IMG/VR virus record: IMGVR_UViG_3300025728_000289
Length of the DNA: 54,424 bases
Direction: 5' to 3' (one strand)
Source of the DNA: an uncultured virus (IMG/VR IMGVR_UViG_3300025728_000289)
Lineage: Duplodnaviria > Heunggongvirae > Uroviricota > Caudoviricetes
The notes below the pieces were generated by a model that was not told where the DNA came from, made no database searches, and saw only the letters and a list, made by a program, of their open reading frames with translations. Position numbers and translations under genes: made by a program. Shown piece after piece: positions 2 through 48,798 of the stretch (its first letter is position 1; each line of letters begins with the position of its first letter).

Positions 2-1156
2 TGTAGAAAAGGTATAGAAGAAGCTGATGCGCGTTCAGAGGAACTTTTGAAACAAGCGAAAGTAATCGTGGGTGTTGATGTCAACTTAAACAGCCCTGTA
101 CAACTTATGAAGATACTTGGCCTAACCACCACGGCTAAGGAGGCATTGGAAGAGAGTAGCCATCCTCTTGTATCTACAGTGCTTGAGTACCGAGCATGGC
201 AAAAAGTCAAGACAACCTACTACGAAGTGTTTTTGAATGATCGCGACGAACAGAATAGACTTCATCCAGACTTGTTCCAGATTGGAACGGTGACTGGTCG
301 GTTGTCTTGTCGGAATCCGAATCTCCAAGCACTACCACGGGCGAAGGATGACACTGATCCCTTTGCTCATATCTACCGTGTCCGTAATGTAATCGTGCCT
401 CCGGGACCAGATTATGCTCTTGTGTTTTCTGACTTATCTCAGGCCGAAATGCGGATAGCAGCCCACTATGCTAAAGAAACAGCGATGATAGACATTATTA
501 AAGCTGGAGGAGACTTGCATACCCAGACGGCTGTCGTTATGTTTGGTGACAAATGTATAGACCCTCGTACGGGTGTGCCTACAAAAGAATATCGTAACTT
601 TGCAAAAAGACTTAACTTCGGTATCATTTACGGTATGGGTGCAAAAGCCCTAGCAGGAAACTTGGGGTGCAGTATTGAGAAAGCTAAAGAACTGCTTGAC
701 CAATACCACGAAAAATTCCCAGGGTTCAAAAAGTTGTATGCAAGTGCGGAAATGCGAGCTATAGTACGTGGCTGGATTACTATGTGGTCAGGTCGTAGAC
801 GCCGTTTCAAAGGCGACAAAATTGAAATGTGGGAATGCAGAAAGGCCATGAACAATCTGATCCAAGGATCCGTATCGGAAATGATGAAACACGCGATGAT
901 CAAAGTGGACAAATTGTTCCGTGAAGAAACCGGCGACCGCTCCTATATATTCAATCAAGTGCATGATGACCTGCAAATGGCGGTTCACAAGGATGACTGG
1001 CACTTGGTCCCTATCATTCGAGACATTATGCAGGACCACCCTTGGTGCACAGTTCCTATCATCACAGATACAGAATACTCTCTTACTTCTTGGGGAGAAA
1101 AGAGCAAGTGGAAAGAGGGTATCGACCCGTGGGCAACTAAGTCCTTTGTAGTCTGA
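2..1156 (+). CDS. polA: Family A DNA polymerase, C-terminal polymerase domain (5' truncated by window edge); phage-type, candidate DpoZ-like
   Basis: Motifs TGRLSCRNPNLQ, motif A DLSQAEMR, motif B RNFAKRLNFGIIYG, motif C VHDD. Frame is open from base 2. Confidence 0.93.
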   Translation, partial: CRKGIEEADARSEELLKQAKVIVGVDVNLNSPVQLMKILGLTTTAKEALEESSHPLVSTVLEYRAWQKVKTTYYEVFLNDRDEQNRLHPDLFQIGTVTGRLSCRNPNLQALPRAKDDTDPFAHIYRVRNVIVPPGPDYALVFSDLSQAEMRIAAHYAKETAMIDIIKAGGDLHTQTAVVMFGDKCIDPRTGVPTKEYRNFAKRLNFGIIYGMGAKALAGNLGCSIEKAKELLDQYHEKFPGFKKLYASAEMRAIVRGWITMWSGRRRRFKGDKIEMWECRKAMNNLIQGSVSEMMKHAMIKVDKLFREETGDRSYIFNQVHDDLQMAVHKDDWHLVPIIRDIMQDHPWCTVPIITDTEYSLTSWGEKSKWKEGIDPWATKSFVV

Positions 1157-1161
1157 TATGT

Positions 1162-1195
1162 GTGGAGGGGGTATAGAGTCATGAACCCTCTCCAC
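1162..1195 (+). terminator. Hairpin after polA (probable terminator)
   Basis: GTGGAGGGGGT...ACCCTCTCCAC inverted repeat just after the stop codon. Confidence 0.55.
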
Positions 1196-1401
1196 CAAAT
1201 CCTCTTTTGCATTTATGAACTGCAATTATTGAGTTAACTACAACCGCATGTTAGAATACATATAAGAATTAATGGTTGATTTATATAGCACCTTAGAATG
1301 ACTAACAAAATAGAACACCCATCCCATAGACTGTCTAGTTAAGATACCGTTAGCTAGGTGGTCTATTTACTTTCTATATATTCATAAAAGAGGTGAAATG
1401 T

Positions 1402-1848
1402 ATGTTGTTCATTGTTCTAGACCCTGGAAAATCTACAGGCATGACTGTTATGAAAGACGGAAAGTACATATTTGGATGTACTGTTGAGGATTATAACTGG
1501 ACTTGGCTCATGGAAAAAGTGGAAAGTCTAGCTGCGAGACACAAAAATGTGACAGTCATTACAGAGGAATTTCGCGTATACCCTGGAATGGGTGCACAAC
1601 AAGCTCTCCAACCTGCTTGGAGTGCACAAATAAATGGGATGCTAGAGTATTTTGTGTATTTGAATAGTAGAAAAGGAAAAAACTATCACTTTATAAAACA
1701 GTGGGCATCGACAGCTAAGACATATAGCAGTGATGATAAACTTAAGCAACACGGGTTATGGAAAGGCACGAAACATCAAAAAGACAGTGCACGTCACTAT
1801 ATATTCTATATTGAAAATACACGCAATAAGGAGATGAAAAGGGCATGA
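1402..1848 (+). CDS. RuvC-like Holliday junction resolvase (phage type)
   Basis: N-terminal LDPGKSTG, central EEF, C-terminal HQKDSARH. RBS GAGGTG favours ATG at 1402. Confidence 0.7.
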   Translation: MLFIVLDPGKSTGMTVMKDGKYIFGCTVEDYNWTWLMEKVESLAARHKNVTVITEEFRVYPGMGAQQALQPAWSAQINGMLEYFVYLNSRKGKNYHFIKQWASTAKTYSSDDKLKQHGLWKGTKHQKDSARHYIFYIENTRNKEMKRA

Positions 1849-2372
1849 GACTCCCGCAAACAGAGTATACGTTATCCATGCACACACTGAAAGGCTCCCG
1901 TTTTTCATGGGTATGGTATACCTTCTCTGTATGTCTCGCTATTGCATATGTGACGGTTGCATTTAACTTTAATAGCCTCTATGTCAATGATATAGTTTTT
2001 CTACTGCAACTGCCAGTGTACGTAGCTGTGATCATCCTGCATGAGGGAATACATATTGTTTGGAAGATCATATTTGGCTATACTGGGAAAATGGTGCGCG
2101 TAAGGAATGGGTCGACATCTATAATAACCTTCGTTGTGGATCAGCCCATCAAGAAATGGCACTTTTTGGCTATCGTATCCAGCCCGTTTATTTTGCTTAA
2201 CATCGCGACCATACCATTCCTGTTTACACCTTATGCACCCTATATACTTCTCCCCATGCTGTTGAACAACTTGGGGTGCCATATTGATGCCAAACTCACA
2301 GCTGTTGCGTTGTTATCTAATCCGAAACATGTGGAAGTAAACAATGGCACTATTCGGTATGTGTATACTTGA
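1845..2372 (+). CDS. Membrane protein with HExxH motif (DUF3267 / putative zincin peptidase)
   Basis: LHEGIH motif, several TM segments, ATGA overlap with upstream gene. Confidence 0.65.
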   Translation: MRLPQTEYTLSMHTLKGSRFSWVWYTFSVCLAIAYVTVAFNFNSLYVNDIVFLLQLPVYVAVIILHEGIHIVWKIIFGYTGKMVRVRNGSTSIITFVVDQPIKKWHFLAIVSSPFILLNIATIPFLFTPYAPYILLPMLLNNLGCHIDAKLTAVALLSNPKHVEVNNGTIRYVYT

Positions 2373-2444
2373 GACATGTATACTTTGACGTCTTTTCTGA
2401 CATAGATGGAATTGAGCATGTTCCGAGCATCCGGTTTTAATTCA

Positions 2445-2474
2445 TTGACTATACATACCGAACTGTGATACAAT
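2445..2474 (+). promoter_or_regulatory. Sigma-A promoter of purZ
   Basis: TTGACT-N18-TACAAT with TG extended -10. Confidence 0.7.
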
Positions 2475-2512
2475 TACAGTACAACACCAAAATTGATTTA
2501 GGAGGACTTAAT

Positions 2513-3595
2513 ATGGAAAGATCTTTAGATGTTATTCTCGACTTGTCGTTTGGTTCGTGTGGTAAAGGCCTTATCGGGGGCTATCTCGCCACTCGTAACA
2601 AGTACGACTTCGCTATAGAGAGCTATGGTGTGCAGGCTGGCCATACGGTTATTAAGGAAGATGGCACTACATACGTTGTACAACAACTCCCACAAGCACT
2701 GATCGACCCAGATGTGAAATTGTATATTGGGGCTGGAGCAGTAATCGACATTGATCAGCTCAAAAAAGAAGTGGATGAGTATCTAGGCGGCATGGAAAAA
2801 GCAAAAGGTCGTTTGTTCATTCACCCACGCGCTTCTGTAATTCAAGACCAACATAAACAGTGGGAAAGAGAAAACATTAGATCTGGTAGCACATTTAAAG
2901 GTGTTGGAGCAGCCAGTGGGTTTAAGGCCATGAGACACCCGGATCACACCCTCATTAAAGATTTACCAGAGTGGGCCGACTTTATTGCGGATACAGCTGA
3001 ACTCGCTTGTGATGCTTTAGAAGATGGCAAATCAGGCATTCTGGAAGTGGCTCAAGGATTCGAACTAGGTTTAAACCACGGGTTCCAGTATCCTAATTGT
3101 ACAAGTCGGGAATGCACACCTATGCAAGGTCTATCGGACAATGGTATTCCTCCAAAACACGTTCGCGACACATATGGTGTAATCCGGACGTACCCAATTC
3201 GTATTTCCAATGAAATGGCTACTTCCGAAGGTGGACAAGCCTACTCAGGTGATGGCGGTAAAGAAATCACCTGGGAAGAAGTAGAAGACCGGGCAGGTGC
3301 TCCACGTGGTGCATTCTCCTCAAAAGAATTAACTACAGTGACTAAAAAGCTCCGTCGTGTCTTTGAATTCGATGTGGAACGTATCAAGCGGGCTGTGAAA
3401 ATCACAGGGGTAAACAAATTGGCCGTCAACTTCATTCAGTATGTCAACTATGTTGATGCTGGCGTTACTGATTACGAAAAACTGTCTGAAAAATCAAAAG
3501 AATTTATTCGGATGATTGAGAAAGAAACAGGTGTACCAGTAGTTCTTATTGGTACCGGACCTCGTAACGACCAAGTCATCGACCTAGAAGCATAA
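2513..3595 (+). CDS. purZ: PurZ-type adenylosuccinate synthetase homologue (candidate succino-2-amino-dAMP synthase, Z-base pathway)
   Basis: FGSCGKG (Ser where PurA has catalytic Asp, GDEGKG), AGHT, GSTFKG, AQG, RTYPIRI, TTVTKKLRRVFEF, NFIQY, GTGP. 360 aa. RBS AGGAGG before ATG 2513. Confidence 0.85.
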   Translation: MERSLDVILDLSFGSCGKGLIGGYLATRNKYDFAIESYGVQAGHTVIKEDGTTYVVQQLPQALIDPDVKLYIGAGAVIDIDQLKKEVDEYLGGMEKAKGRLFIHPRASVIQDQHKQWERENIRSGSTFKGVGAASGFKAMRHPDHTLIKDLPEWADFIADTAELACDALEDGKSGILEVAQGFELGLNHGFQYPNCTSRECTPMQGLSDNGIPPKHVRDTYGVIRTYPIRISNEMATSEGGQAYSGDGGKEITWEEVEDRAGAPRGAFSSKELTTVTKKLRRVFEFDVERIKRAVKITGVNKLAVNFIQYVNYVDAGVTDYEKLSEKSKEFIRMIEKETGVPVVLIGTGPRNDQVIDLEA

Positions 3596-3603
3596 TATAA
3601 AAC

Positions 3604-3640
3604 AAAAAGAGAGAGTTCACACATGTGACTCTCTCTTTTT
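3604..3640 (+). terminator. Intrinsic terminator after purZ
   Basis: AAAAAGAGAGAGT...ACTCTCTCTTTTT. Confidence 0.8.
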
Positions 3641-3711
3641 ATGCTAGAATTGACACAGTATGTTGATGTGTGTTATGATAACAGCATAAACCATATAAGG
3701 AGTGTTTTATA

Positions 3712-3969
3712 ATGTATGTGTATATCGTTGTTTTTCCAGGATTTGAATTCGAGGGATCAGCTGTTATCGTAGCTAGTGACCAAGAAAAAGCATGTACTCA
3801 ACTAGAAGATCACTTCCGTCAGGAAAGATTTGGAAAAGAAGGTGAAGAAAATTTTCACCCCGACCACCCAGAAGTTTTCTCATATAGTGTTGTATCTAAA
3901 ATAAAAGCGGCAACAGATGAAGAGCCTAGCTTAAAATACATTAATTATGGTGGAGAAGGATCTAGATAA
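3712..3969 (+). CDS. Hypothetical protein (85 aa)
   Basis: Own promoter TTGACA-N18-TATGAT (3650-3679), RBS AAGGAG, terminator 3980-4016. Confidence 0.7.
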   Translation: MYVYIVVFPGFEFEGSAVIVASDQEKACTQLEDHFRQERFGKEGEENFHPDHPEVFSYSVVSKIKAATDEEPSLKYINYGGEGSR

Positions 3970-3979
3970 CACACACATA

Positions 3980-4016
3980 AATGAAAGGGAGTACCAAGAA
4001 GGTACTCCCTTTCATT
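3980..4016 (+). terminator. Intrinsic terminator
   Basis: 16-bp stem AATGAAAGGGAGTACC / GGTACTCCCTTTCATT. Confidence 0.75.
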
Positions 4017-4130
4017 TATGTATTTACCAAAAACATTCCGGAACAGAGAAGGAAATACATATTATTGATTCGTCTCCTGGCACATGGTAGAATGGTGTAT
4101 GTATTTTACTATGTATGTGAGGAGATAAAT

Positions 4131-6734
4131 ATGAGAGATACATCATTCAAGTTTATAGATTTGTTTGCTGGTATAGGAGGTTTTCGTACAGCTTTTGAAA
4201 GACTGGGCGGTCAATGTGTTTTTTCTTCAGAAATAAACCCTTTTGCACAACAAGCCTATAACATATTGCATGGGGAAGTACCAGCGGGAGATATACGACA
4301 AGTACAGGCAGATGATATCCCTGATTTCGATTTGCTATGCGGAGGCTTTCCTTGTTTTGCTGCAGGTGAATTGGTCACTACATCTATGGGTATGAAGCCC
4401 ATCGAAGATATAAAAAAGGGTGACTATGTGCTAACACATAAAAATCGGTTTAGAAAAGTAGTTATGCCTATGGTGAAACACAAACAAGGAATCTTCCGGT
4501 TAAGTGTTTTGGGAAGCCCGAGCACTTTTGTTACTGAAGAGCACCCATATTATGTACGTCGTTATACCAGAGTTTGGAATAATGATAAGAGGACATATGA
4601 AAGAGTGTGGGGGCCCCCTGAATGGAAAGCTGTCAAAGATTTAACCAAAGAGGATTATGTTGGGTTTGCCACAAATAAAAAGGCAGAGAACATAAAGAAC
4701 TTAACTGCTGAGCAGTGTTGGCTTTTAGGGCGATATGTCGCAGATGGGTATATCCGCAATTATGCACGAAAAGGGAGACAGAACTCACATCATCATATTG
4801 TCACCTTCTGCATTGGAAAACACAAACTTGATAATTTTCGACAACGAGTGACTGAGTATTCTCTAGGTGTGACAGAAGAAAAAACTTCATACAAATGCAG
4901 AATCATAAACGAACACTTTATGAATCTGTGTATTGAGTGTGGGCGAGGCGCGCACAATAAACAAATTCCTGGATACATCATGGATTTACCTGAAGATCTC
5001 CTCCAGCATTTTTTAGATGGGTACATATCTGGGGATGGGGATGTGAACAAAAATAACGTGATAAAAGCCACAACTGTTAGCAGACAACTAGCCTACCAAG
5101 TATCCCAGGCAGTGCAAAAAGTGTATAAAAAGCCTTGTAGCATTATCAAAGTAAAAACGGCTGATCAAAAAGTTATTGAGGGACGAGTAGTGAATCAATC
5201 TGATTACTTTCAGATACGATTCAAGACCACTCCTTCCAACCGAGATAGATCTAAATATCTTGATGATATGCTTTGGTGCCCCGTGAAAGATCTAACTTGG
5301 ATTCCTAATTATGACTCCGTAGTCCACAACTTCGAAGTTGAAGAAGACAATAGTTATGTAGTCAATAACTGTGTCGTACACAACTGTCAGGCCTTCTCCT
5401 TTGCTGGCAAGAGGCTCGGATTTGCCGATGAAACTAGGGGTACCTTGTTTTTTGAAATAGCCCGCATAGCAGAAGCTAAGAAACCGAAGTACCTATTCCT
5501 AGAGAACGTGAAAGGTCTGGTGAACCACGAAAAAGGACGTACTCTAGACACAATTGTCAGGACTCTATCGGATCTGGGATATTCTGTAGACTTTGAAGTG
5601 ATAAACTCAAAGTACTATGGCGTTCCTCAAAATAGAGAACGTATCTATATTGTAGGTGTGTTGGATGGGGAAGTAAGCCCATATGTTGTCTCAAAGAAGA
5701 AGTCCATTATATCGGCAGCAAAGAAAAGACAAAATGAGTATGGGGATATACGGTCTTTCAACTTTGCATGGCCTACAAATTCCGAGGTCACTACATCTGT
5801 ACGTGATATTATGGAAGACAATGTTGATGACATCTTCTATATGACTGAGGACAAAACTGAAAAATTGATAGATGTGTTGACAAACCGAGGGTACTTTTCT
5901 GAGGAACGTCTTGGCAGGATGGAAATGGTGGGATTGTTACATTACCGTGGCACAGATCAAACACGGCGTGTATATGATGCGAATGGGTTGGCTCCTACAT
6001 TGACGGCACATAGTGGTGGAAGTACAGAACCGAAGGTTCTATATTCAGAAGATATCATGGAGTTTTCCATGGGTGATGGCATAACCTGTTGTGTGGATGC
6101 TAGTTACTCCAAGGGGGTTTCACCCAATTGTGTAGGCAAGGGTAGGCGTACTCATATTGTGGAACCTAATAGTGCAAATCTCACACCTAAGTGGAAGATA
6201 CGTAAACTTACACCGGTGGAGTGTTTCAGACTCCAGAGCTTTCCCGAGTCCAGCATTATCAAATTAAAACAATCCGGCATCAAAAACACTCAGCTATACA
6301 GAATGGCGGGGAACTCAGTAACAGTAAATGTCATACAAAGTATTGGAACTAATATAGTCCATTTATCTAATGGGAGTTCACCTGTACAAGAGTGCCTGCC
6401 GTTAGAACCTCAGACCTCTATGACATGCGAATATGAGAAAAATGAACATGAAAGACGAGTTTCCAAGGCCCCATCTGATGTGACTGAACAATGTGGTTCA
6501 TTTACTCAACTCATGTTTAAGTATATTAAACACACTAAGATAGTGGAAAGAAAAACAACGACAGATTTATACAATGACGTCAAGAGTTTTGCAAATGAAC
6601 TAAATATTTCAGATCCTGGTTTAAGCAACCCTATATATTTTGGCACTATTATGAAGATAAAATCTGAAGAATTAGCCAATTTAGGTATACGTGTCAATAA
6701 AAGCAAGAAGCATTGGTCAATAACTCGGCCATAA
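4131..6734 (+). CDS. DNA (cytosine-5) methyltransferase, intein-containing, with long variable region and C-terminal extension
   Basis: Motif I DLFAGIGG, split motif IV GGFP|CQAFS, motif VI ENVKG, motif VIII PQNRERI, motif X MAGNSV. True start 4131 (RBS GAGGAG, promoter 4065-4093); the track start 3981 lies in a terminator. Confidence 0.92.
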   Translation: MRDTSFKFIDLFAGIGGFRTAFERLGGQCVFSSEINPFAQQAYNILHGEVPAGDIRQVQADDIPDFDLLCGGFPCFAAGELVTTSMGMKPIEDIKKGDYVLTHKNRFRKVVMPMVKHKQGIFRLSVLGSPSTFVTEEHPYYVRRYTRVWNNDKRTYERVWGPPEWKAVKDLTKEDYVGFATNKKAENIKNLTAEQCWLLGRYVADGYIRNYARKGRQNSHHHIVTFCIGKHKLDNFRQRVTEYSLGVTEEKTSYKCRIINEHFMNLCIECGRGAHNKQIPGYIMDLPEDLLQHFLDGYISGDGDVNKNNVIKATTVSRQLAYQVSQAVQKVYKKPCSIIKVKTADQKVIEGRVVNQSDYFQIRFKTTPSNRDRSKYLDDMLWCPVKDLTWIPNYDSVVHNFEVEEDNSYVVNNCVVHNCQAFSFAGKRLGFADETRGTLFFEIARIAEAKKPKYLFLENVKGLVNHEKGRTLDTIVRTLSDLGYSVDFEVINSKYYGVPQNRERIYIVGVLDGEVSPYVVSKKKSIISAAKKRQNEYGDIRSFNFAWPTNSEVTTSVRDIMEDNVDDIFYMTEDKTEKLIDVLTNRGYFSEERLGRMEMVGLLHYRGTDQTRRVYDANGLAPTLTAHSGGSTEPKVLYSEDIMEFSMGDGITCCVDASYSKGVSPNCVGKGRRTHIVEPNSANLTPKWKIRKLTPVECFRLQSFPESSIIKLKQSGIKNTQLYRMAGNSVTVNVIQSIGTNIVHLSNGSSPVQECLPLEPQTSMTCEYEKNEHERRVSKAPSDVTEQCGSFTQLMFKYIKHTKIVERKTTTDLYNDVKSFANELNISDPGLSNPIYFGTIMKIKSEELANLGIRVNKSKKHWSITRP
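4353..5384 (+). mobile_element. Intein (344 aa) with LAGLIDADG homing endonuclease
   Basis: Starts CFAAGELV, block B TEEHPYY, LLGRYVADG and FLDGYISGDG motifs, ends VVHN followed by Cys+1. Confidence 0.92.
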
Positions 6735-6735
6735 A

Positions 6736-6835
6736 CAAAAAGAGGGGGACCGCCAGTTGGGCGATCCCCTTCGTCCGTTCGTGTAAAATGTAAAGAGTGT
6801 TGTGAGTGTCGCAGCAACTGTGTCAAGGTTGCTAC
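6736..6835 (-). ncRNA. Candidate small RNA (about 100 nt)
   Basis: Consensus minus-strand promoter TTGACA-N18-TATAAT (6871-6842), 5' hairpin GTAGCAAC/GTTGCTGC, terminator GAAGGGGAT...TCCCCCTCTTTTT, no plausible ORF between them. Confidence 0.6.
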
Positions 6836-6968
6836 ACTTTTATTATATCACACGGACACGCGTCTTGTCAAGTGCAGTATGCTTTCAGGTCAATTGTTAA
6901 CGTCGCGAAAATAGTGTTAGTTATTGACGAATTTTTGTATGTAATGCTATGATGACATGAAGGAGATG

Positions 6969-7187
6969 ATGAAATTGAGTATTCAATTAGGTGCAATTAA
7001 ACTAGAAGTGTTGGAAACGAGTGTGGAAATTTCAGGTATCGGATACACGCATAAGGTTCATGGACTGCCCGATCATGATTATTGGGTGTTTGCACGCCCT
7101 AAGTTCGAGGACGGCAACATTTTGCATATTATCGTCTACAATCCCAGCACTCACAGAAGTAATAAAGTACTAGTAACCAGTCAGTGA
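6969..7187 (+). CDS. Hypothetical protein
   Basis: Promoter TTGACG-N18-TATGAT (6924-6953), RBS AAGGAG; exact start uncertain. Confidence 0.6.
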   Translation: MKLSIQLGAIKLEVLETSVEISGIGYTHKVHGLPDHDYWVFARPKFEDGNILHIIVYNPSTHRSNKVLVTSQ

Positions 7188-7268
7188 GTGAATTCAGACT
7201 AAATTATTGTGTATTACACTTCAGACAGTATATAATTGGAAATAAATACATGTCTAGGAGTGTCGTAT

Positions 7269-8423
7269 ATGCAAAATATGTTGCTTAATTTACGTAGTCT
7301 ACAACAAATAAATACTCGCATTTCGGAGAAATCCACCGAAATAAAACAAACCAAAGCATTTTACACCCAACTGTTTAGCGAAAATTTGCAAGAACTTACG
7401 TCTTTGCTAGGTGGACTAAAGAAAATGCGAGACTTGCATACTCGCTCTGCTGAGTCACTTTATCCTTTACAGTCTGGGTTGTTTGATCTATCGCATATCC
7501 AGGAACTCACACGATCTCTTTCAGATGAGATTGATCATCTGACTCAGCAAGCGGAAGTTAGTATGAATGAACAAAAGGGCACAGAGAAATTGGCAAACCT
7601 CCACGAAGAACTGGAACGCCTAGGGAATGAGCAGGTCAATCTGGAAAAGGCATTGGTTCAAGGTTTTTGGGACTTGTCTGATAACCTGAAGTCTGTACAG
7701 TACGAAACAGCCGATATGTTTGCTGTACACTATGATGTCCTTACACACATCTTGGTAACTGAACATTCTGTTTCACCTGTTGATGCTGCTGACATTGTAA
7801 ACCTTGTCACTCACTACGTGAAGGGTAAAAGTGAATATAGTTCTAGCAGTGTCGAATTAGTAAGAGTGGAAAAAAGTAAGGTCGGATCTTCTTTCGGATT
7901 AGGGGAAGACCCTTTTGAAGTGACCGTGAATGGTCACACACTACAAAAATTTGATCTTGATAAAACAATCGACAAAAAGAAAAACCACATGATCATCTCC
8001 GGTACAGTTGACGTGCAGATAGAAGGGGATGTGTCATGTGTTCTTGATGAGGACGCAGGTGTTTTCGCTACGAAAGACCAGCATTGGATTCTTCAAGGAT
8101 ATACTTTACAAAATTATATTGCCGTGGCTACAGCACATGTAGAATTTGTTTTTGATATGGACAGATGTTTGGAATCGTCTGATATTGATCTCCGACAAGA
8201 AGAAGTGAAATTTACGCTTCCAGTGCTAAAGATCGAACCATGTGTAAATTCAGACACTCTCAACCTTTTGGTAAAGATGTTAATGGAAGAAGTCCAAAAA
8301 GTTGATGTTGAAGAACTAGCGTGGGGAACAATATTAAGTGAAGTGGTATCAAAGGATATTGAAGATTCACTTAAATCTGACATCGAAGATATGGCGAAAG
8401 AAATAGAATTTACAGTGAGCTGA
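7269..8423 (+). CDS. Hypothetical protein, N-terminal coiled coil
   Basis: Long ORF, RBS AGGAG before ATG 7269, terminator 8434-8460. Confidence 0.7.
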   Translation: MQNMLLNLRSLQQINTRISEKSTEIKQTKAFYTQLFSENLQELTSLLGGLKKMRDLHTRSAESLYPLQSGLFDLSHIQELTRSLSDEIDHLTQQAEVSMNEQKGTEKLANLHEELERLGNEQVNLEKALVQGFWDLSDNLKSVQYETADMFAVHYDVLTHILVTEHSVSPVDAADIVNLVTHYVKGKSEYSSSSVELVRVEKSKVGSSFGLGEDPFEVTVNGHTLQKFDLDKTIDKKKNHMIISGTVDVQIEGDVSCVLDEDAGVFATKDQHWILQGYTLQNYIAVATAHVEFVFDMDRCLESSDIDLRQEEVKFTLPVLKIEPCVNSDTLNLLVKMLMEEVQKVDVEELAWGTILSEVVSKDIEDSLKSDIEDMAKEIEFTVS

Positions 8424-8433
8424 ATACTTTTTT

Positions 8434-8460
8434 AAAGAGGTGGCATATGCCACCTCTTTT
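8434..8460 (+). terminator. Intrinsic terminator
   Basis: AAAGAGGTGGCATATGCCACCTCTTTT. Confidence 0.75.
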
Positions 8461-8536
8461 CCTATTTATTGACAGGCCTGTACATATCGTGATAAACTGT
8501 ACATATTAAAACAAGGTATGTACATGATATAAGGAT

Positions 8537-9166
8537 GTGGATATATTGCAACCTGGACTATTTGTTGTGTTTGAGGGACCAGAAGGAGCCTCGAAAGGAA
8601 CACAATCCCAACTATTTGCGGATTATTTACAGGATAAAAAAATCCCATACATACACACACGAGAGCCAGATGGCCCTATTCGTAGTGTTTTGCTTGATCC
8701 TGCAAATACGGGAATGATACACGATGACACAGAAGTGTTGTTGTACGCTGCTTCACGCGTTAACAAATTTTTAACCGAAATAAAACCTGCGCTTGAAGAA
8801 GGAAAAGTTGTGGTATGTGATCGTTACCTTGAGTCCTCTCTCGCATATCAGGGTTATGCTGGTGGAGTGGATCTAGCGAAGATACTGAGCATCCATGACG
8901 CTTTTATAAATGATAGCAGGGTGACTCTGTTGTTTGACATTTCTTATGAAACAAGCAGGAAAAGGTTGGGGACACGGGGAGAAGCGCTAGATAGGCTCGA
9001 GATGAAGTCAGAAGTATATCACAGAAAAGTTATTGATGGTTATAGGAAACTAGCCAAAGATTACTCTCACATTAAGCGTATAGATGCGAATCAAACAATT
9101 GATCAAGTACATTCAGAAGTGTTGAGTTTATTGACTCCACTACTGGAAGAAAGAGGGATGTTATGA
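8537..9166 (+). CDS. tmk: Thymidylate kinase-like dNMP kinase
   Basis: FEGPEGASKGTQ P-loop (variant), TREP, CDRY..SSLAYQG, IDANQ. Confidence 0.88.
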   Translation: MDILQPGLFVVFEGPEGASKGTQSQLFADYLQDKKIPYIHTREPDGPIRSVLLDPANTGMIHDDTEVLLYAASRVNKFLTEIKPALEEGKVVVCDRYLESSLAYQGYAGGVDLAKILSIHDAFINDSRVTLLFDISYETSRKRLGTRGEALDRLEMKSEVYHRKVIDGYRKLAKDYSHIKRIDANQTIDQVHSEVLSLLTPLLEERGML

Positions 9167-9678
9167 GTAAACGAGTAATTATATCTCTCATTTCTCCACC
9201 TGGAGGAGGGAAAACAACTATACTTAAGCATTTGTCTGAGCATCACCAATTGCCCATACTGAGTTCGGGAGATATAGCGAGGCAAATGCAGAGGGATACA
9301 GAAACGAATTTCCTAATACAAGGGGGATTTGCTCCTGAAGAAGAGATGAGACGCAGACTCTTAGAATCCATTGAGACATTATTTGTCTCTAGCAACGTGA
9401 TACTGGCTGATGGGTTCCCGAGATTCGTTGACCAGCTGAATTGGTTGGAAAACTCTCTAGATGGCGTGGATATTGTATTGTACCACTTGGATGTGCCATT
9501 GGACAAATGTAGAGACAGACTGCAGTCTCGCAATCGTTCTGATGACAATGAAGAAACTATAGAGGCAAGATTCAAACAATATACTGAACAAACAGAGCCA
9601 ATTGTCACTTCGCGACATCTGCGACGGTACAATTATGATTTTGTGACTCAAGTAATTCTTGCGGCAAAGAAAAATTAG
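9163..9678 (+). CDS. Adenylate kinase-like NMP kinase (short, no LID domain)
   Basis: SPPGGGKTT, SSGDIAR, DGFPR, RSDDNEE. Confidence 0.82.
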   Translation: MSKRVIISLISPPGGGKTTILKHLSEHHQLPILSSGDIARQMQRDTETNFLIQGGFAPEEEMRRRLLESIETLFVSSNVILADGFPRFVDQLNWLENSLDGVDIVLYHLDVPLDKCRDRLQSRNRSDDNEETIEARFKQYTEQTEPIVTSRHLRRYNYDFVTQVILAAKKN

Positions 9679-9691
9679 GAGGTTTAATACA

Positions 9692-10693
9692 ATGCAAATG
9701 TGCTATCTTGCAGGTGCTATCGATATGGTTATTCCAGAACAGGCTAGAGGTTGGAGAGACAATGTCTCTAAAGTGTTAAACGATCATGGCATCCACACTT
9801 TTGATCCAGCTTCTGCTTTTAATCTATCTCGTAAGGATAGCGAGACATGGTTGTCCAAAACAGATATGGTTATCAAACTAAACAACATGGCCTTAGACAG
9901 TTCCGAGATTATGCTGGCCGAAATGGAATTTAATTGCCAGCATACAGGCACTACCCGCGAACTTATTCGTGCCAGTGAACAAGATGGGAAGCTTGTTGTG
10001 GTGTGGAACTCAAGCGAGTATACTCCCCTATATCTCACAGATATCCCCAATCTTGTTATCAAATCTACACTGGCAGAGTGTGTGGAATATATTATCGAAA
10101 AAATAACAGGGGTCGCTCCTAGTCCCGACGTATGCCGTTCTGTATTGGAAACTAAAGTGGACAAACCTGCCATTAAAGTTATGCTGACTGAAAAGCATCC
10201 TTTAATGATCGCAAAAGAACGTGGTGAAATTTCCGATATTGATCCTTCAATGCTGTTATTCAAGAAACACAGCGATGATACTGGGTATGACATTATGTGC
10301 ACTGAGAACGTGACAGTACCTCCAGGGGGAAAAGTACAAGTGCCAACACATTTGGCTATCCAGCCGCCAAAAGGTTACTGGTATCGTTTGGTTGCTAGAT
10401 CCTCAACATTCCATGTCCATGAGATGCTGGTGGTAGAAGGCATCATCGATACACAATTCCGAGGTGTGTTGTACTGCAACATTCAGAACATGAGCAATGA
10501 GACTAAGACAATCCGTGCTGGTGATTCTGTGGCCCAACTGATATTCCATGAGATCGTAGGCGAACATTGGGATGTGTCAGTGCACGACTCTCTGGATGCT
10601 ACGGATCGTGGTGAAGGTGGATTCGGAAGTACAACTGCTTCTAAAGACTTTATCGTGGAGATGTACCAAAAATACGCTTCCGTGACGGTTTAA
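9692..10693 (+). CDS. Fusion of a nucleoside 2-deoxyribosyltransferase-like (NDT/DNPH1) domain and a trimeric dUTPase-like domain
   Basis: N-terminal YLAGAID..WR..FDP..GTTRE; C-terminal GYDI, ARSS, GIIDTQFRG, AQL, RGEGGFGST. RBS AGGAGG. Confidence 0.82.
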   Translation: MQMCYLAGAIDMVIPEQARGWRDNVSKVLNDHGIHTFDPASAFNLSRKDSETWLSKTDMVIKLNNMALDSSEIMLAEMEFNCQHTGTTRELIRASEQDGKLVVVWNSSEYTPLYLTDIPNLVIKSTLAECVEYIIEKITGVAPSPDVCRSVLETKVDKPAIKVMLTEKHPLMIAKERGEISDIDPSMLLFKKHSDDTGYDIMCTENVTVPPGGKVQVPTHLAIQPPKGYWYRLVARSSTFHVHEMLVVEGIIDTQFRGVLYCNIQNMSNETKTIRAGDSVAQLIFHEIVGEHWDVSVHDSLDATDRGEGGFGSTTASKDFIVEMYQKYASVTV

Positions 10694-43689: not shown

Positions 43690-44349
43690 CTACTCCTCAT
43701 ATAGGATGCTAGCTGTGACAGCCTTAATATTTACAAGTTCCTCTGCACTATCCAGTAGCTCTTGGAGTATTGTGGTTAGAAAACATTGCACACTGCCCAG
43801 TTCTATGCGTTTTAGTTTACGAACCCCGTCTACATAGGCGTTTTGGAACTCGCGTGAAGGGTTTCCGGCTTGGATCTCATTTAGACACTCCATTAGTAGA
43901 TCTATGGAGTCAGCAGCCTTAAGAATCTGTCCCTCAATAGTATTATCTTTCCCGTTTGAGAGAATATGTTTATACATATCGGCATAAACTGGGGACAACT
44001 GACTGTAAAGCATATCATTCGCAAAGATCTCTTCAATAGTCTCGATATGAGCCTTAACTTCGGGGTTATGGTTTTTGATTGGTCCTTTGATATCCCCCGT
44101 GTAGGCTTCCTTAAAATCGTGGTTTAACGCTTTTTCATACAACTCTTTCCAATTGATTACTTGTCTGAACTCTGTTTCTTCGATTCGTCCGAGCAACTGG
44201 GCTGTCTGAGCAACTGTAAAGCTATGTGCAGCTACAGTTGGTCTGTTGTCCCCCATAATATGAAGACCTGGCCACCGCCATAGTCTGTTGAGTTTCCTGG
44301 AGTCGGATAACACCAAACTTAAATTTTGTAAATTTGCCTCATGATTCAT
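43690..44349 (-). CDS. HD-domain YfbR-like 5'-deoxynucleotidase (DatZ-like candidate)
   Basis: RWPG, VAAHSF, ALNHDFKEAYTGDI, AADSID; promoter TTGACA-N18-TACACT (44430-44401). Confidence 0.85.
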   Translation of the reverse strand: MNHEANLQNLSLVLSDSRKLNRLWRWPGLHIMGDNRPTVAAHSFTVAQTAQLLGRIEETEFRQVINWKELYEKALNHDFKEAYTGDIKGPIKNHNPEVKAHIETIEEIFANDMLYSQLSPVYADMYKHILSNGKDNTIEGQILKAADSIDLLMECLNEIQAGNPSREFQNAYVDGVRKLKRIELGSVQCFLTTILQELLDSAEELVNIKAVTASILYEE

Positions 44350-44478
44350 CTGCATACACTCCTTATCCTTTATGGCAATACACGCCATGTCTGTATATAA
44401 AGTGTAATATGTCACATGCTTTTTTGTCAAGCGAATTGGGACAAGAAAAAAGAGGCACCACGTGTGCCTCCCTCCTCT

Positions 44479-44928
44479 TCAACTGCCTATGAGTCTGTGC
44501 GCTAACATACACTCCCCCACTAATGGGTCATCCATATCTAGGTATTTCAGTTTTCTACTGTCTAAGTCCAAGACCATGGCATACTCCTCGTTGTGCGGAT
44601 GAACATCAAACATACCCTTGAACACTAAAAAAGATCCGGAACAGTAGGTCAGTAAATCTGCCTTGTACTCAGACGCGTTTGTAAACAACATATTGTGCAG
44701 TTCCAACGTTTCTGCTAGTTGCGAATCGCTCAGCACCACTTCAGTTTCCATATCTCGTGATCTTGCTCGATTAAACAGTATTATAGGGTACACAGATAGC
44801 CCCAGAAAACAAGTGGCTCTATCGTTTTTCTCGGACCAGTCACTAGTGATTCTAAGTGTTTTTGTTCGATCACATACAACGGCCGATTCGATATCCCCAT
44901 AGATCGATATATCACGTATCTTACGCAT
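44479..44928 (-). CDS. Hypothetical protein
   Basis: RBS AAGGAG; promoter TTGCGA-N18-TATAAT (44989-44960). Confidence 0.6.
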   Translation of the reverse strand: MRKIRDISIYGDIESAVVCDRTKTLRITSDWSEKNDRATCFLGLSVYPIILFNRARSRDMETEVVLSDSQLAETLELHNMLFTNASEYKADLLTYCSGSFLVFKGMFDVHPHNEEYAMVLDLDSRKLKYLDMDDPLVGECMLAHRLIGS

Positions 44929-45043
44929 ACAAACACTCCTTATATATTGTCCTCTCTCCATTATATCACAGTGAGGGGCAGGGTCGCAATAACTTATTGA
45001 GATACATTTTGTTCATATGTTATGATGTGTTGGAGGTGATAAC

Positions 45044-46237
45044 ATGGAAATTATGTATACTGCACAGGATCTCGATAACCATCATATATTGACGAAATAC
45101 TATTTCATCCAGAAGATAGAGTTAGGCTGGGATGGCCTGTATGATCTTAAAATCACATTTCTGCCGTCGTTTAATATTCCTGTATATGTAAATCGGTTTA
45201 GTCCGGAAAAACGTGGGTTTTTCGCCCAAGTATTTGGACAACAACTACCCGCGTACATAGCGGATGTCCTTGGGTCCATGAGTCCTGAGAATCTTTATTA
45301 CTTCATTTCAAAAAGTCAAGGATCTCCATATTTTGAGGCTAATCAAGTGATCTATTCTAACCAAGCAATGTTTGCTTCGTTACGTGTTTATCTGAGTGGC
45401 AAGGATTACTGGATTAATTGGAACAAGACACCTGTACACCATATCCATGCAGGCCAGTGTGATGGGAGAAGTAATCCAGAGATCCTAGAATCCCTCCGCC
45501 ATGCTATAAATACAGAGATAGCGGACATCAAGGACTTGCATGTGTCTCTCCACCCTAATGGATCTACACATATGCAAGAAAGGTCATTCTCCTTGGTCAA
45601 AGAGGGAATCCAGTGGCGCAGAACAACGGCTAAGAACAATCTCATACACCAACTACAGTGGGAAAACTCTGGAGTTGTATGTCCACCAAAAGATTATGTG
45701 GGCAAAAAGAAATTTATGAAACCACCAGATAATGATGAAGTATACTTGAGACGGTGTCTAGATGTGCAAAAAATGTACAGTTTATGGCAACAAGATACAT
45801 ATGTGGAAAAGAAACGTTCTCACACGGATGTTTACTATCACCCCATCAGATCTGAAGTTTACATTTGTTGCTGGGACCCGATTAAAAAGGTGGAGACTCG
45901 AAAGAGTCATGTGAGTGCTCCACACAAAACAAATAGTTTGCAACAGCCACCTTTGGAGATAGTGCACCCAAGTCAAATCCAATACCTCTATTCAGATATA
46001 GAAGATGCTGTATACACCAAAAATGATAGTATAGTTTTCACGAATGCTGAGACGTATAGGTTGCCAAATGGTGCAACAATATACTGCTTTTGCATTCATA
46101 ATACCACTACGAACGAAGAATCTGAAGAACATTATGCCATTGTGGCGAGTGATATAGTCTATATTCTTTCTGGAGATGACCCGCATGTGAAACAGGTCTT
46201 GAATTTGAGGATGCTGAAAGATGCCTTAATGATATAA
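45044..46237 (+). CDS. Hypothetical protein
   Basis: RBS GGAGGTG; promoter TTGAGA-N18-TATGAT (44997-45026). Confidence 0.7.
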   Translation: MEIMYTAQDLDNHHILTKYYFIQKIELGWDGLYDLKITFLPSFNIPVYVNRFSPEKRGFFAQVFGQQLPAYIADVLGSMSPENLYYFISKSQGSPYFEANQVIYSNQAMFASLRVYLSGKDYWINWNKTPVHHIHAGQCDGRSNPEILESLRHAINTEIADIKDLHVSLHPNGSTHMQERSFSLVKEGIQWRRTTAKNNLIHQLQWENSGVVCPPKDYVGKKKFMKPPDNDEVYLRRCLDVQKMYSLWQQDTYVEKKRSHTDVYYHPIRSEVYICCWDPIKKVETRKSHVSAPHKTNSLQQPPLEIVHPSQIQYLYSDIEDAVYTKNDSIVFTNAETYRLPNGATIYCFCIHNTTTNEESEEHYAIVASDIVYILSGDDPHVKQVLNLRMLKDALMI

Positions 46238-46299
46238 AAATTTCTTGACGGAATCTCTAGGATGTGTTTTACTAAGAAAAAATATAGAGGTGACTAAGT

Positions 46300-46473
46300 A
46301 TGAAAAAACCTATGTCTAGTTTATCTTGGAGGAATCAGTGGCCTGAGGGTGTAAGAGGTGGGGTCACAAAAGTAAAAGAAAACAAGAAAGGAAAAGGGTC
46401 TTACAAAAGATCAAAAGAAAAGAGTGGCCATCGATCATACCAAGATGGCCACTCTTTTTATATATATACATGA
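46300..46473 (+). CDS. Unannotated ArfA-like alternative ribosome rescue factor (57 aa)
   Basis: MKKPMSSLSWRNQWPEGVRGGVTKVKENKKGKGSYKRSKEKSGHRSYQDGHSFYIYT contains the ArfA signature NKKGKGSYxR; RBS GAGGTG; terminator inside the CDS. Confidence 0.7.
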   Translation: MKKPMSSLSWRNQWPEGVRGGVTKVKENKKGKGSYKRSKEKSGHRSYQDGHSFYIYT

Positions 46474-46633
46474 GAGCCACACCCCTATTCCCTTCAGTCG
46501 GAGTGTGGCCAATATTTGGGGCATCGCATTTGAGAAGGGCATCTCATGCTTTCCCTAAGTTAAGGAGTGTATGAAGGGAAACTGTCACGAAGAACTGCGC
46601 CAGCACCACGGATTTAATGTGTTCCCTTCATAC
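46415..46633 (-). ncRNA. Candidate structured ncRNA (about 215 nt)
   Basis: Promoter TTGAAA-N18-TATAAT (46667-46638); stems 46569-46580/46622-46633 and 46475-46485/46500-46510; ends at the bidirectional terminator. Confidence 0.5.
46418..46459. terminator. Bidirectional intrinsic terminator located before the arfA-like stop codon
   Basis: 15-bp perfect stem AAAAGAGTGGCCATC / GATGGCCACTCTTTT. Confidence 0.8.
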
Positions 46634-46699
46634 TTTTATTATACATCATGTACAAATTATATTTCAACATATACTATGGACGAATCCCCTCAGATGCTA

Positions 46700-47578
46700 C
46701 TACTCTACTACCTTAAGAGTGACATACTGTCTACCGAACTGTAGCGCCTCACTCATTGTGGCTTTTAGAACATCTATCCGGAATCCCTTAATATCTCCCC
46801 CGACATCCTTCGTTTCCCAAATTCCTAAGCTCTTCCCATCAACGAACAATTCCACTTTTCTATTTAGATCGATCACATTCGGGTCAACAGCGATGATCTT
46901 CGGTGTTGTTTTTCGAATATCGACCCCGGCTGCAGTGATACCGGAACATCCTGTGCATTTTGCTGTGTATGCCGTAGCTTCTACTGTAAATATCGCCCCA
47001 ACTTGCTGTTTCACTAGTATTGTTTTCTTACTACTAGCTGAAGTAGATTTGATTTTGTTACTTGTAGTTGAAGGTAATGTAGAGGACGTAGTTTTCACCG
47101 TATTTTGTATTTTCGATTGGGCCGCGCCCAACTCAGTTCTAGTATTGTCCAGTTTATTTTTTACGCTACTGAGTTTAGACTCGGCTGTCATCAGTTCTGC
47201 CTGAAAAGCTTTCTTTGTATAAGATATCTGCTTATTTAGGCCCGATATCGTCTCATCTTTCTTTGACATCTCTTCCTTCAGCACCACCAACTCTTGTCTT
47301 ACGGAGTTTGTTGTCTCCTCGTTCTTTGCCAAAGCCACCGAATTGGCTTCATTTGCTTGTTCTATTTTTTGTTCGTACATTGCTTTTGTCGCTTCTATCT
47401 CTGCAGAAGATTTTGTGTACATAGAAGCTAGAGTAACCGTAGATATCATAAATGCTAAAGCGACACCACCACCAACAATCTTTCTCCAATTTGACTTCAA
47501 TAAACTAGGTGTATGTTTGTCCAACGTTATAATCCTCCTATAAATGTTTTTGTTGCTAGTTCCTACCCTAGGTGTCAT
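46700..47578 (-). CDS. 3D-domain cell wall protein with coiled coil (YocH/YuiC-like)
   Basis: EATAYT..C.GC.GIT, IAVDP, DVGGDIKG.RIDV; TM plus coiled coil; start may be TTG 47524. Confidence 0.85.
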   Translation of the reverse strand: MTPRVGTSNKNIYRRIITLDKHTPSLLKSNWRKIVGGGVALAFMISTVTLASMYTKSSAEIEATKAMYEQKIEQANEANSVALAKNEETTNSVRQELVVLKEEMSKKDETISGLNKQISYTKKAFQAELMTAESKLSSVKNKLDNTRTELGAAQSKIQNTVKTTSSTLPSTTSNKIKSTSASSKKTILVKQQVGAIFTVEATAYTAKCTGCSGITAAGVDIRKTTPKIIAVDPNVIDLNRKVELFVDGKSLGIWETKDVGGDIKGFRIDVLKATMSEALQFGRQYVTLKVVE

Positions 47579-47724
47579 AAGTATGCACTCCTGAATTCTA
47601 CCACCATGTCTATATACATGTCAATACTATATGCCTAAGAGACTATCTGCCCTGTGCCTGCATGTACTTGATAGTTGTCCCACCAGCATGCTATGATATG
47701 TGCATACCACAGGAGGTGATACAG

Positions 47725-48798
47725 TTGTTGTTGATTGCGATTTTCGCGGGTATTGTTTTGATGGCCATACCTCTTTATAAATACATAAGATACCTTTCCT
47801 TGAATCGCATGCTTGCGGATATCCTTGTTAGGGGCAACACATTGGAAGATGTTAAGACCTCACAGGCGGCTAATAAGCTACTGCACTTTATACTAGAGAG
47901 AGAGTACCTGACATTATTGGAAAGAGAGAGAAAGAATTTGCCATATTGTTCAGGTCAAGAGCTCAAATTTATGTTCTGGCACAGTTTGACATATAATAAA
48001 AACCATACCGCAGATTACGTGACCTTTCTCTCAATTATAACCAAAGAGTTGAGTCGATACTCAGTATATCCTGATGCTTTTGTCAGATTTTTGCGTAGAA
48101 AAAATCAGTCTACTCAAGTGTCTGGGTTCCTAGATTCTATTCTTAACATCGAAAACAAAGATTGGGAGGCCAAACACTTGCATGTATACAACGATGACGA
48201 GTGTACAGGGTTACTTTTCAAACGGAATAGGCTTAGTCATTATTACGTGTGGAATAAGAAAGGACAGATGCTTGCAAGATGGACAGGCTCAATGCGTGAT
48301 ATTCCTGGATGGAGTGAACGACAGAGTGCCCACCCCTTGGATTTTTACAATGTAGACAGGGATATAGTACCACAGTTAGCTTTCTATGAGTCAAAAATCA
48401 AAGAGCTATCAGAAGACTATCGGGATCTTAGGGATCCCTTAAGGCACCTTAATACATCCTTGGTGTTGTTCAATGACACAGCTCGGTCTTTTGTTGACTA
48501 TATGCAGAGTGATCATTATGTAGTTAGTCAAGATGAAGTGCGAGAAGTATATGCGGAATATATACCCAAAGTTCTTTCTTCTCTTGCCACTCTCGTCGAG
48601 AGTATAAGGTATGGAAAGGATCCGAATGTGTGCATTCAAATTGAAAAATTGAGACAATCTCTGCCTTTTCATCGTGCCACTTTAGAAAATCACATGGATA
48701 CTGTCTCCGATGTATTAGTTAACAACGCTCTTGTGGAACTAGACCATGTAAGACAAATGATAATATGTAAAAATCGGGGAGGCTTTGACATATGGTAG
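47725..48798 (+). CDS. Membrane-anchored hypothetical protein
   Basis: Promoter 47668-47697, RBS AGGAGG, N-terminal TM. Confidence 0.65.
   Translation: MLLIAIFAGIVLMAIPLYKYIRYLSLNRMLADILVRGNTLEDVKTSQAANKLLHFILEREYLTLLERERKNLPYCSGQELKFMFWHSLTYNKNHTADYVTFLSIITKELSRYSVYPDAFVRFLRRKNQSTQVSGFLDSILNIENKDWEAKHLHVYNDDECTGLLFKRNRLSHYYVWNKKGQMLARWTGSMRDIPGWSERQSAHPLDFYNVDRDIVPQLAFYESKIKELSEDYRDLRDPLRHLNTSLVLFNDTARSFVDYMQSDHYVVSQDEVREVYAEYIPKVLSSLATLVESIRYGKDPNVCIQIEKLRQSLPFHRATLENHMDTVSDVLVNNALVELDHVRQMIICKNRGGFDIW

Follow-up and report, generated by a model that had tools for sequence, protein, structure and literature searches.

An ArfA-like gene on a plasmid-like element

The window, meaning the whole stretch of 54,424 nucleotides analyzed here, carries at 46300 to 46473 an ORF for a 57-amino-acid (aa) protein with the motif KENKKGKGSYKR, as the sequence-only reading had stated, and its TGA stop codon occupies 46471 to 46473. 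The same protein is an already called gene in JGI/IMG, Logan, and ENA. The locus comprises the following features, with L014 and L011 denoting an ortholog and its allele described below.

45044..46237, plus strand: upstream gene for 397 aa, function not assigned; syntenic in L014 (24% identity)
46245..46273, plus strand: likely sigma-A-type promoter (-35 TTGACG, 17-nt spacer ending in TGTG-T, -10 TTTACT)
46286..46293, plus strand: ribosome-binding site AGAGGTGA, 6 nt 5' of the ATG (sequence reading)
46300..46473, plus strand: ArfA-like ORF, 57 aa, basic (ORF reading, Pfam)
46330..46341, plus strand: N-terminal family motif R11-x-x-W14, not found in gammaproteobacterial ArfA (conservation in 87 relatives)
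46366..46410, plus strand: ArfA-like core T23-R37, with a predicted release factor (RF)-binding strand and the KGKGSY mRNA-channel motif (Pfam, PDB chains, HHalign)
46418..46459, plus strand: intrinsic-terminator-like hairpin (15-bp perfect repeat, 11-nt loop) followed by T5, inside the ORF (folding, shuffles, compensatory pairs against L014 and L011)
46411..46454, minus strand: the same hairpin, then TTTTCTTT, a possible terminator for a convergent transcript
46638..46667, minus strand: strong promoter-like site with 11 of 12 consensus matches, aimed at the 3' end of the ArfA-like gene (promoter scan)
46700..47578, minus strand: convergent 3D-domain (cell wall) gene; syntenic in L014 (50% identity)

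The likely promoter at 46245 to 46273 is absent from the list of the consensus promoter scan because the scan demands an A at position 2 of the -10 element. A second ORF for 57 aa, at 46571 to 46744 on the plus strand, has AAGGAG 5' of its ATG and an internal 12-bp hairpin with a T-tract; it had no Pfam match and is not evident in L014.

L014 is a syntenic ortholog on a 303-kb contig with the gene order of the window: signal peptidase, YfbR-like gene, a gene of about 400 aa without assigned function, ArfA-like gene, convergent 3D-domain gene, and exonuclease. Between the two elements, the neighboring proteins share 24 to 65% identity and the ArfA-like proteins 50%. Within residues 11 to 37, 21 of 27 are identical, and 15 of these 21 are conserved through synonymous codon changes. 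Because the codons of 15 of the 21 conserved residues have changed, selection is evidently acting on the protein, and by this comparison 46300 to 46473 is a real gene under protein-level selection. The L014 gene has a promoter-like site of its own (TTGACA-18-TACGAT, with TG just upstream), and its protein scores 28.6 bits, above the Pfam ArfA cutoff. No further orthologous elements were found in viral contigs via two neighbor genes.

The window forms the second half of a 116,424-base IMG/VR record that is classed as linear and about 80% complete, and its proteins have also been recorded from a 239-kb contig. Mating genes on the element encode TcpC, TcpE, a VirB4-like ATPase, an M23/SLT hydrolase, and pilus-type ATPase and F proteins. 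The element also encodes two Replic_Relax proteins, a T4SS coupling protein, an actin-like protein, and HU, and it carries PolA and nucleotide enzymes. No virion family was matched among the 74 ORFs scanned with Pfam, which are a subset of the element's ORFs, and no tRNA or tmRNA genes were found on the element. In a plasmid collection, the GyrB of the element was closest to a Paenibacillus record (67.8%). Judged by its gene content, the element is a large conjugative plasmid-like replicon, and its host likely belongs to the Bacillales (Bacillota). In the window, positions 47 to 10693 hold PolA, an adenylosuccinate-synthetase-like gene, an intein-bearing C5 methylase, two NMP kinases, and a dUTPase fusion; beyond it (G000:C1, 8316 to 15641 and 45652 to 47142) lie gyrase A and B, ThyA- and DHFR-like genes, and one CCA/poly(A)-polymerase-family gene.

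The protein and its family

A search with the ArfA HMM, which the sequence-only reading had proposed as a check, returned ArfA (PF03889) as the sole Pfam match of the protein (E = 5.8e-4), with residues 23 to 40 on profile positions 25 to 42 and a score of 19.7 bits that misses the gathering cutoff of 25.5 bits. A PDB sequence search gave four matches at E <= 10, all of them ArfA chains, and the block KNKKGKGSYMR quoted earlier for Escherichia coli ArfA is present in these alignments. The family profile matched the E. coli ArfA chains in PDB at E = 1e-5. HHalign against gammaproteobacterial ArfA gave a probability of 97.7%, limited to 23 C-terminal columns. In the profile comparison, T23-K26 aligns with ArfA strand residues 27 to 30, which extend a sheet of RF2, and KGKGS (K30-S34) with a basic tail follows as in the channel motif of ArfA, the predicted shortened product containing 14 K/R residues. 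At the place of the KH tail motif of ArfA and BrfA, the window copy has E40-K41 and L014 has K-H.

The N-terminal half lies outside the ArfA profile alignment. ArfA F25 lands on Gly21, and the N-terminal arm of ArfA (short helix, A18, F25) has no counterpart in the window protein in this alignment. The resemblance to ArfA, as traced by profile, PDB, and HHalign comparison, is therefore confined to the C-terminal half, so the earlier designation as an ArfA-type factor holds for the core and not for the N-terminal half. Since it failed both the Pfam cutoff and the N-terminal test, the protein was not filed as a canonical ArfA. An AlphaFold monomer was essentially unstructured (pLDDT, 68; pTM, 0.23), which is uninformative either way; this low-confidence model contains no helix. 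The nearest ESM Atlas clusters (scores of 0.90 and 0.89) carry the name ArfA on 12 to 16% of their members, which serves as a lead only. In NCBIfam, no ArfA or BrfA model matched the protein, a result that is uninformative because the canonical ArfA control was also unmatched. The protein was unmatched in PHROGs, and relatives matched phrog_2701 and phrog_37108, both function-unassigned.

Single-sequence searches with the protein (word-index protein search, tblastn of viral contigs, and phage and plasmid records) found no relative. An exhaustive phmmer search identified P0005 (E = 1.1e-6) and P0006 (E = 1.9e-5) as true relatives; a third match, the 1371-aa repeat protein P0004, was rejected as chance similarity to a short W-containing repeat. 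Pattern scans yielded 8 viral, 5 metagenome, and 95 genome loci, and three matches (L027, L054, and L076) were discarded as chance occurrences inside other frames. With a 17-sequence profile, 306 proteins reached E <= 0.001 among 8000 scored candidates. NCBI gives many of the 120 matches listed the name "alternative ribosome rescue factor ArfA"; these come from Peribacillus, Bacillus, Cytobacillus, Paenibacillus, and Brevibacillus. Twelve of the 17 family members reach the Pfam ArfA cutoff, all of them through profile positions 24 to 44 only, and most of the 17 had been picked by a pattern that already contained the motif. Across 87 members, the conservation of R11, W14, T23, and KKGKGSYxR is 90% or higher.

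By these searches, the family is patchy in Bacillota across chromosomes, megaplasmids, and phages. It occurs in 4 of 401 genomes sampled from the phylum (one of them the center genome), in 17 of 67 of the Peribacillus-genome family, and in 4 of 136 of the Paenibacillus-genome family. Many copies are chromosomal and lie next to housekeeping genes (sucC, spoVA, citrate synthase, and a POT transporter). A mobile-element ArfA in Bacillota had been proposed from the letters; the conjugative plasmid-like element and its likely Bacillota host agree with this, but the gene is not a lone case, having hundreds of Bacillota relatives. Six weaker phage relatives, found by tblastn with P0058 (E of 7e-4 to about 2), occur in Bacillus phages vB_BcoS-136 and FADO and Staphylococcus phages Twort, A3R, Romulus, and SscM-1 and have ordinary stops and a changed core. 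These 45- to 59-aa basic genes of Staphylococcus Twortvirinae and large Bacillus phages (L115 to L118, comprising Twort ORF219 and relatives, with L112 and L113) are annotated as hypothetical or by ORF number and keep an R-x-x-W...P-x-T-R arm, with a K-x-K-Y-x-R-type core replacing KGKGSY.

A hairpin ahead of the stop codon

The terminator of 15 bp with a T-tract ending at 46459, ahead of the stop codon, had also been noticed earlier, and it was borne out by the perfect repeat (arms 46418 to 46432 and 46444 to 46458, T5 at 46455 to 46459), by shuffling, and by recoding. Its predicted 3' end, at about 46461, lies 10 nt ahead of the start of the stop codon, and a transcript ending at 46459 to 46463 is predicted to yield a product of 53 to 54 aa without a stop. 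The G+C-closed stem is only 11 bp (46422 to 46454; -20.1 kcal/mol) because the T-tract itself supplies one side of 4 of the 15 pairs, all of them A-T. The fold has a z score of -5.08, and none of 200 shuffles was equally stable. Nor did any of 2000 synonymous recodings of codons 38 to 57 fold as well (-26.7 against a mean of -8.4), and two control stretches of the same ORF were ordinary in this test; since no recoding reached the observed energy, the hairpin is not a by-product of the amino acid sequence.

Such repeats numbered 10 in the real element and 0 in three shuffled genomes. The hairpin is missing from a simple terminator scan because its 11-nt loop exceeds the 8-nt limit of that scan. 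A terminator script run over the whole element gave 44 strand-specific predictions, 11 of which had no same-strand gene stop within 150 nt. Among the remaining 33 gene-adjacent terminators, 32 end 16 to 146 nt past the stop, and only the one at 46418 to 46459 ends ahead of it. As a positive control, a similar script applied to 17 gammaproteobacterial arfA loci, hand-picked from pattern matches, classified 7 as clearly non-stop, 3 as borderline, and 4 as having the stop in the hairpin, and called no terminator at the other 3, so the script detects the known non-stop layout. The gene layout of ArfA and BrfA, in which a terminator or RNase III hairpin precedes the stop, is likewise present at 46300 to 46473. 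Read-through to the stop is possible, because the plus-strand tract consists of only 5 U followed by AU repeats.

Comparison with the ortholog shows that selection has maintained the structure. The stem ends 50 nt past the core Tyr codon in the window element and L014 alike. Of the 15 stem pairs, 9 are invariant across the window element, L014, and L011, 4 show compensatory changes, 1 becomes G-U, and 1 outer A-U pair is broken; this covariation comes from two independent lineages only, and the shuffle count of 6 in 500 is hence not a probability. The L014 stop lies about 30 nt beyond the predicted transcript end. The L011 and L014 alleles are identical up to the T-tract, and a small indel behind it gives ORFs of 79 and 60 aa; because the alleles differ by this frameshift, the ORF tail looks unconstrained. 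These comparisons point to a conserved hairpin inside the gene that is predicted to end the mRNA before the stop codon.

The non-stop layout is not general in the family, as judged from terminator calls. The 26 distinct Bacillota genome loci with the motif (L122 and L134, HMM loci without it, are left out) comprise 6 non-stop, 4 stop-in-hairpin, 3 stop-before-hairpin, and 13 terminator-less loci; AT-rich hairpins may escape the threshold, and some of the 13 show them by eye. At least two of the six non-stop loci look broken upstream. At all five plasmid or phage loci (L007, L110, L111, L114, and L002), no terminator was called. What had been claimed of the layout therefore stands for the window and L014, with their conserved terminator ahead of the stop, and does not extend to most relatives, which have ordinary stops, including the plasmid and phage copies examined. 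In Peribacillus-group genomes, the same hairpin has a stop in its loop in some cases and is read through in frame in others (L044, L048, and L126 versus L053, L128, and L136), a natural switch by which small loop changes turn the non-stop layout on or off.

The hairpin is bidirectional and, by its sequence, may also terminate a convergent transcript. Within 46411 to 46667 on the minus strand, the promoter-like site where the 3D gene ends could start an RNA of about 220 nt that stops at the shared hairpin and overlaps the 3' end of the ArfA-like gene; further hairpins in this interval lie at 46569 to 46633 and 46476 to 46509 (fold z of -4.7). L014 likewise has a promoter-like site on the minus strand where its 3D gene ends, followed by a terminator within about 90 nt, in a sequence that does not align with the window. 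A conserved small RNA between the ArfA-like and 3D genes found no support, as the intergenic stretch aligns unconvincingly with L014. Rfam gave no match near the gathering score over 44000 to 48500, and an L20-leader match (E = 0.16) was dismissed because it is the terminator itself.

Relation to known rescue systems and alternative explanations

The logic of backup ribosome rescue has been described for several systems (PMC6881298, PMC8012679, and PMC6299226). ArfA (YhdL; PF03889; PDB 5MDV, 5MGP, 5H5U, 5U4I, and 7OJ0), from gamma- and betaproteobacteria, is like the window protein small and basic, with a strand and a KKGKGSYxR block, and its gene likewise has a hairpin within the 3' portion of the ORF, upstream of the stop (PMC8012679). 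In the same source, strand Q27-E30 recruits RF2, and the N-terminal half activates it, A18 and F25 being needed for RF2 activation and selectivity. The window protein differs from ArfA in its unalignable N-terminal half, which has a conserved R-x-x-W and no equivalents of A18 and F25; in addition, the window copy lacks KH, and the gene resides on a plasmid-like element whose host is likely one of the Bacillota. E. coli ArfA is nonfunctional with Bacillus subtilis ribosomes or RF2 (PMC6881298), so a working ArfA of Bacillota must be adapted. BrfA (YqkK) of B. subtilis, probably from the same phylum as the window element, shares the intrinsic terminator inside the ORF, which leaves the final codons absent from the mRNA; in contrast, BrfA has two N-terminal helices, none of which is predicted in the low-confidence window model, and the window protein carries the KGKGS motif of ArfA (BrfA data from PMC6881298). 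Neither the protein nor the family profile matched a BrfA chain in PDB at E <= 10, although such a chain may lie outside the PDB copy searched. ArfT of Francisella is very short and, like the window protein, has a KGKGS-like basic stretch, whereas arfT has no terminator ahead of its stop (PMC6299226), and the motifs, as described, are only loosely similar.

PF03889 matches on phages or large plasmids that are named by annotation alone include gp30 of pelagiphage HTVC027P, an annotated ArfA already in print (PMC12753301), and genes of plasmids pAD3 (Bacillus velezensis) and pSC2 (Paenibacillus polymyxa), named ArfA by NCBI through their Pfam match. In contrast to the window gene, those of pAD3 and pSC2 have an ordinary stop and no terminator called ahead of it. 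In the literature searched, which covers few subscription journals and includes PMC6514570, no paper was found on this Bacillota ArfA-like family, nor, within the same coverage, a description of a plasmid-borne non-stop ArfA-like gene.

From the sequence comparisons, 46300 to 46473 is a real gene for a small basic protein with the ArfA C-terminal core, located on a conjugative plasmid-like element. The protein probably serves as a backup ribosome rescue factor, and the conserved hairpin in the gene is predicted to yield a stop-less mRNA. RNA polymerase would start at the gene's own promoter and halt about 10 nt ahead of the stop codon. Transcription and translation in B. subtilis are largely uncoupled, and a terminator inside an ORF could thus fold. 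By analogy with ArfA and BrfA, ribosomes would reach the end of the message, and tmRNA-SmpB would tag the peptide for degradation; when trans-translation is saturated, the peptide of 53 to 54 aa would escape. Its KGKGSY motif and basic tail may then occupy the empty mRNA channel, the T-K-V-K strand may pair with a release factor, probably RF2, and the R-x-x-W arm may stand in for the ArfA N terminus in opening the release factor.

The protein may be an ArfA-like rescue factor as proposed while the main reason for keeping the hairpin is bidirectional termination that serves a convergent transcript, from the 3D gene or the 46667-46638 promoter, in which case plus-strand messages would often reach the stop and tmRNA feedback would be weak or incidental. 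This fits the T-tracts on both strands of the hairpin, which resemble many on the element, the strong minus-strand promoter aimed at it, the lack of any other minus-strand terminator seen by the script between the 3D gene and the hairpin, the short plus-strand tract of 5 U, and the ordinary stops of most family members. Yet the 3D gene of the ortholog has a separate minus-strand terminator, and the hairpin was nevertheless kept there with compensatory changes; the ortholog tail is frameshifted between alleles, and 32 of the 33 gene-adjacent terminators on the element spare the stop, so we regard this explanation as unlikely. A decaying gene, whose ancestral stop in or before an ordinary terminator was lost and whose product is now always tagged and destroyed, is suggested by the Peribacillus relatives with the stop in the hairpin loop, by several chromosomal copies broken upstream, and by the missing KH motif of the window copy. 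Decay is nonetheless highly improbable given the 15 synonymous changes among 21 conserved residues, the intact ribosome-binding site and the promoter-like site, and a stop-less layout shared with an ortholog of only 50% identity.

The activity of the peptide could also differ from rescue: it may fill the empty mRNA channel like ArfA and not activate a release factor, competing with SmpB, tmRNA, or BrfA or parking ribosomes to the benefit of the element, with the stop-less message limiting the dose. Homology confined to 23 C-terminal columns, an activating N-terminal region different from that of ArfA, and relatives in lytic phages of Bacillus and Staphylococcus, whose genes have ordinary stops and altered cores, are compatible with such a role. 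It is improbable, as the RF2-recruiting strand residues of ArfA (Q27-E30) fall within the conserved block, chromosomal copies sit among housekeeping genes, and ArfT and BrfA have unrelated N termini that can activate release factors.

A broader version of the preferred reading, that of a backup rescue factor made from a stop-less mRNA, has in our view an even chance of being correct: Bacillota may hold, besides BrfA, a second release-factor-dependent rescue family that combines the channel-binding core of ArfA with an R-x-x-W arm adapted to Gram-positive ribosomes and is scattered patchily over chromosomes, megaplasmids, and large phages. The conjugative element would tie the rescue factor to the host's tmRNA load through the stop-less mRNA, and lytic phages and other plasmids would produce it free of this brake. 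In a survey of 15,259 genomes, arfA was recorded in 5 of 2,633 Firmicutes and described as confined to Proteobacteria and the B. subtilis group (PMC11633108). If functional, a Bacillota clade with an ArfA core and a different activating arm would change this distribution map and reveal the parts of ArfA that determine species specificity. A plasmid with its own tmRNA-controlled rescue factor would, if confirmed, mean that mobile elements sense and buffer the translation quality control of their hosts. A published survey records no arfA in Alphaproteobacteria; yet Pelagibacteraceae contigs (loci L032, L049, L050, and L065), at which no terminator was called, carry ArfA-core genes of 38 to 43 aa with ordinary stops.
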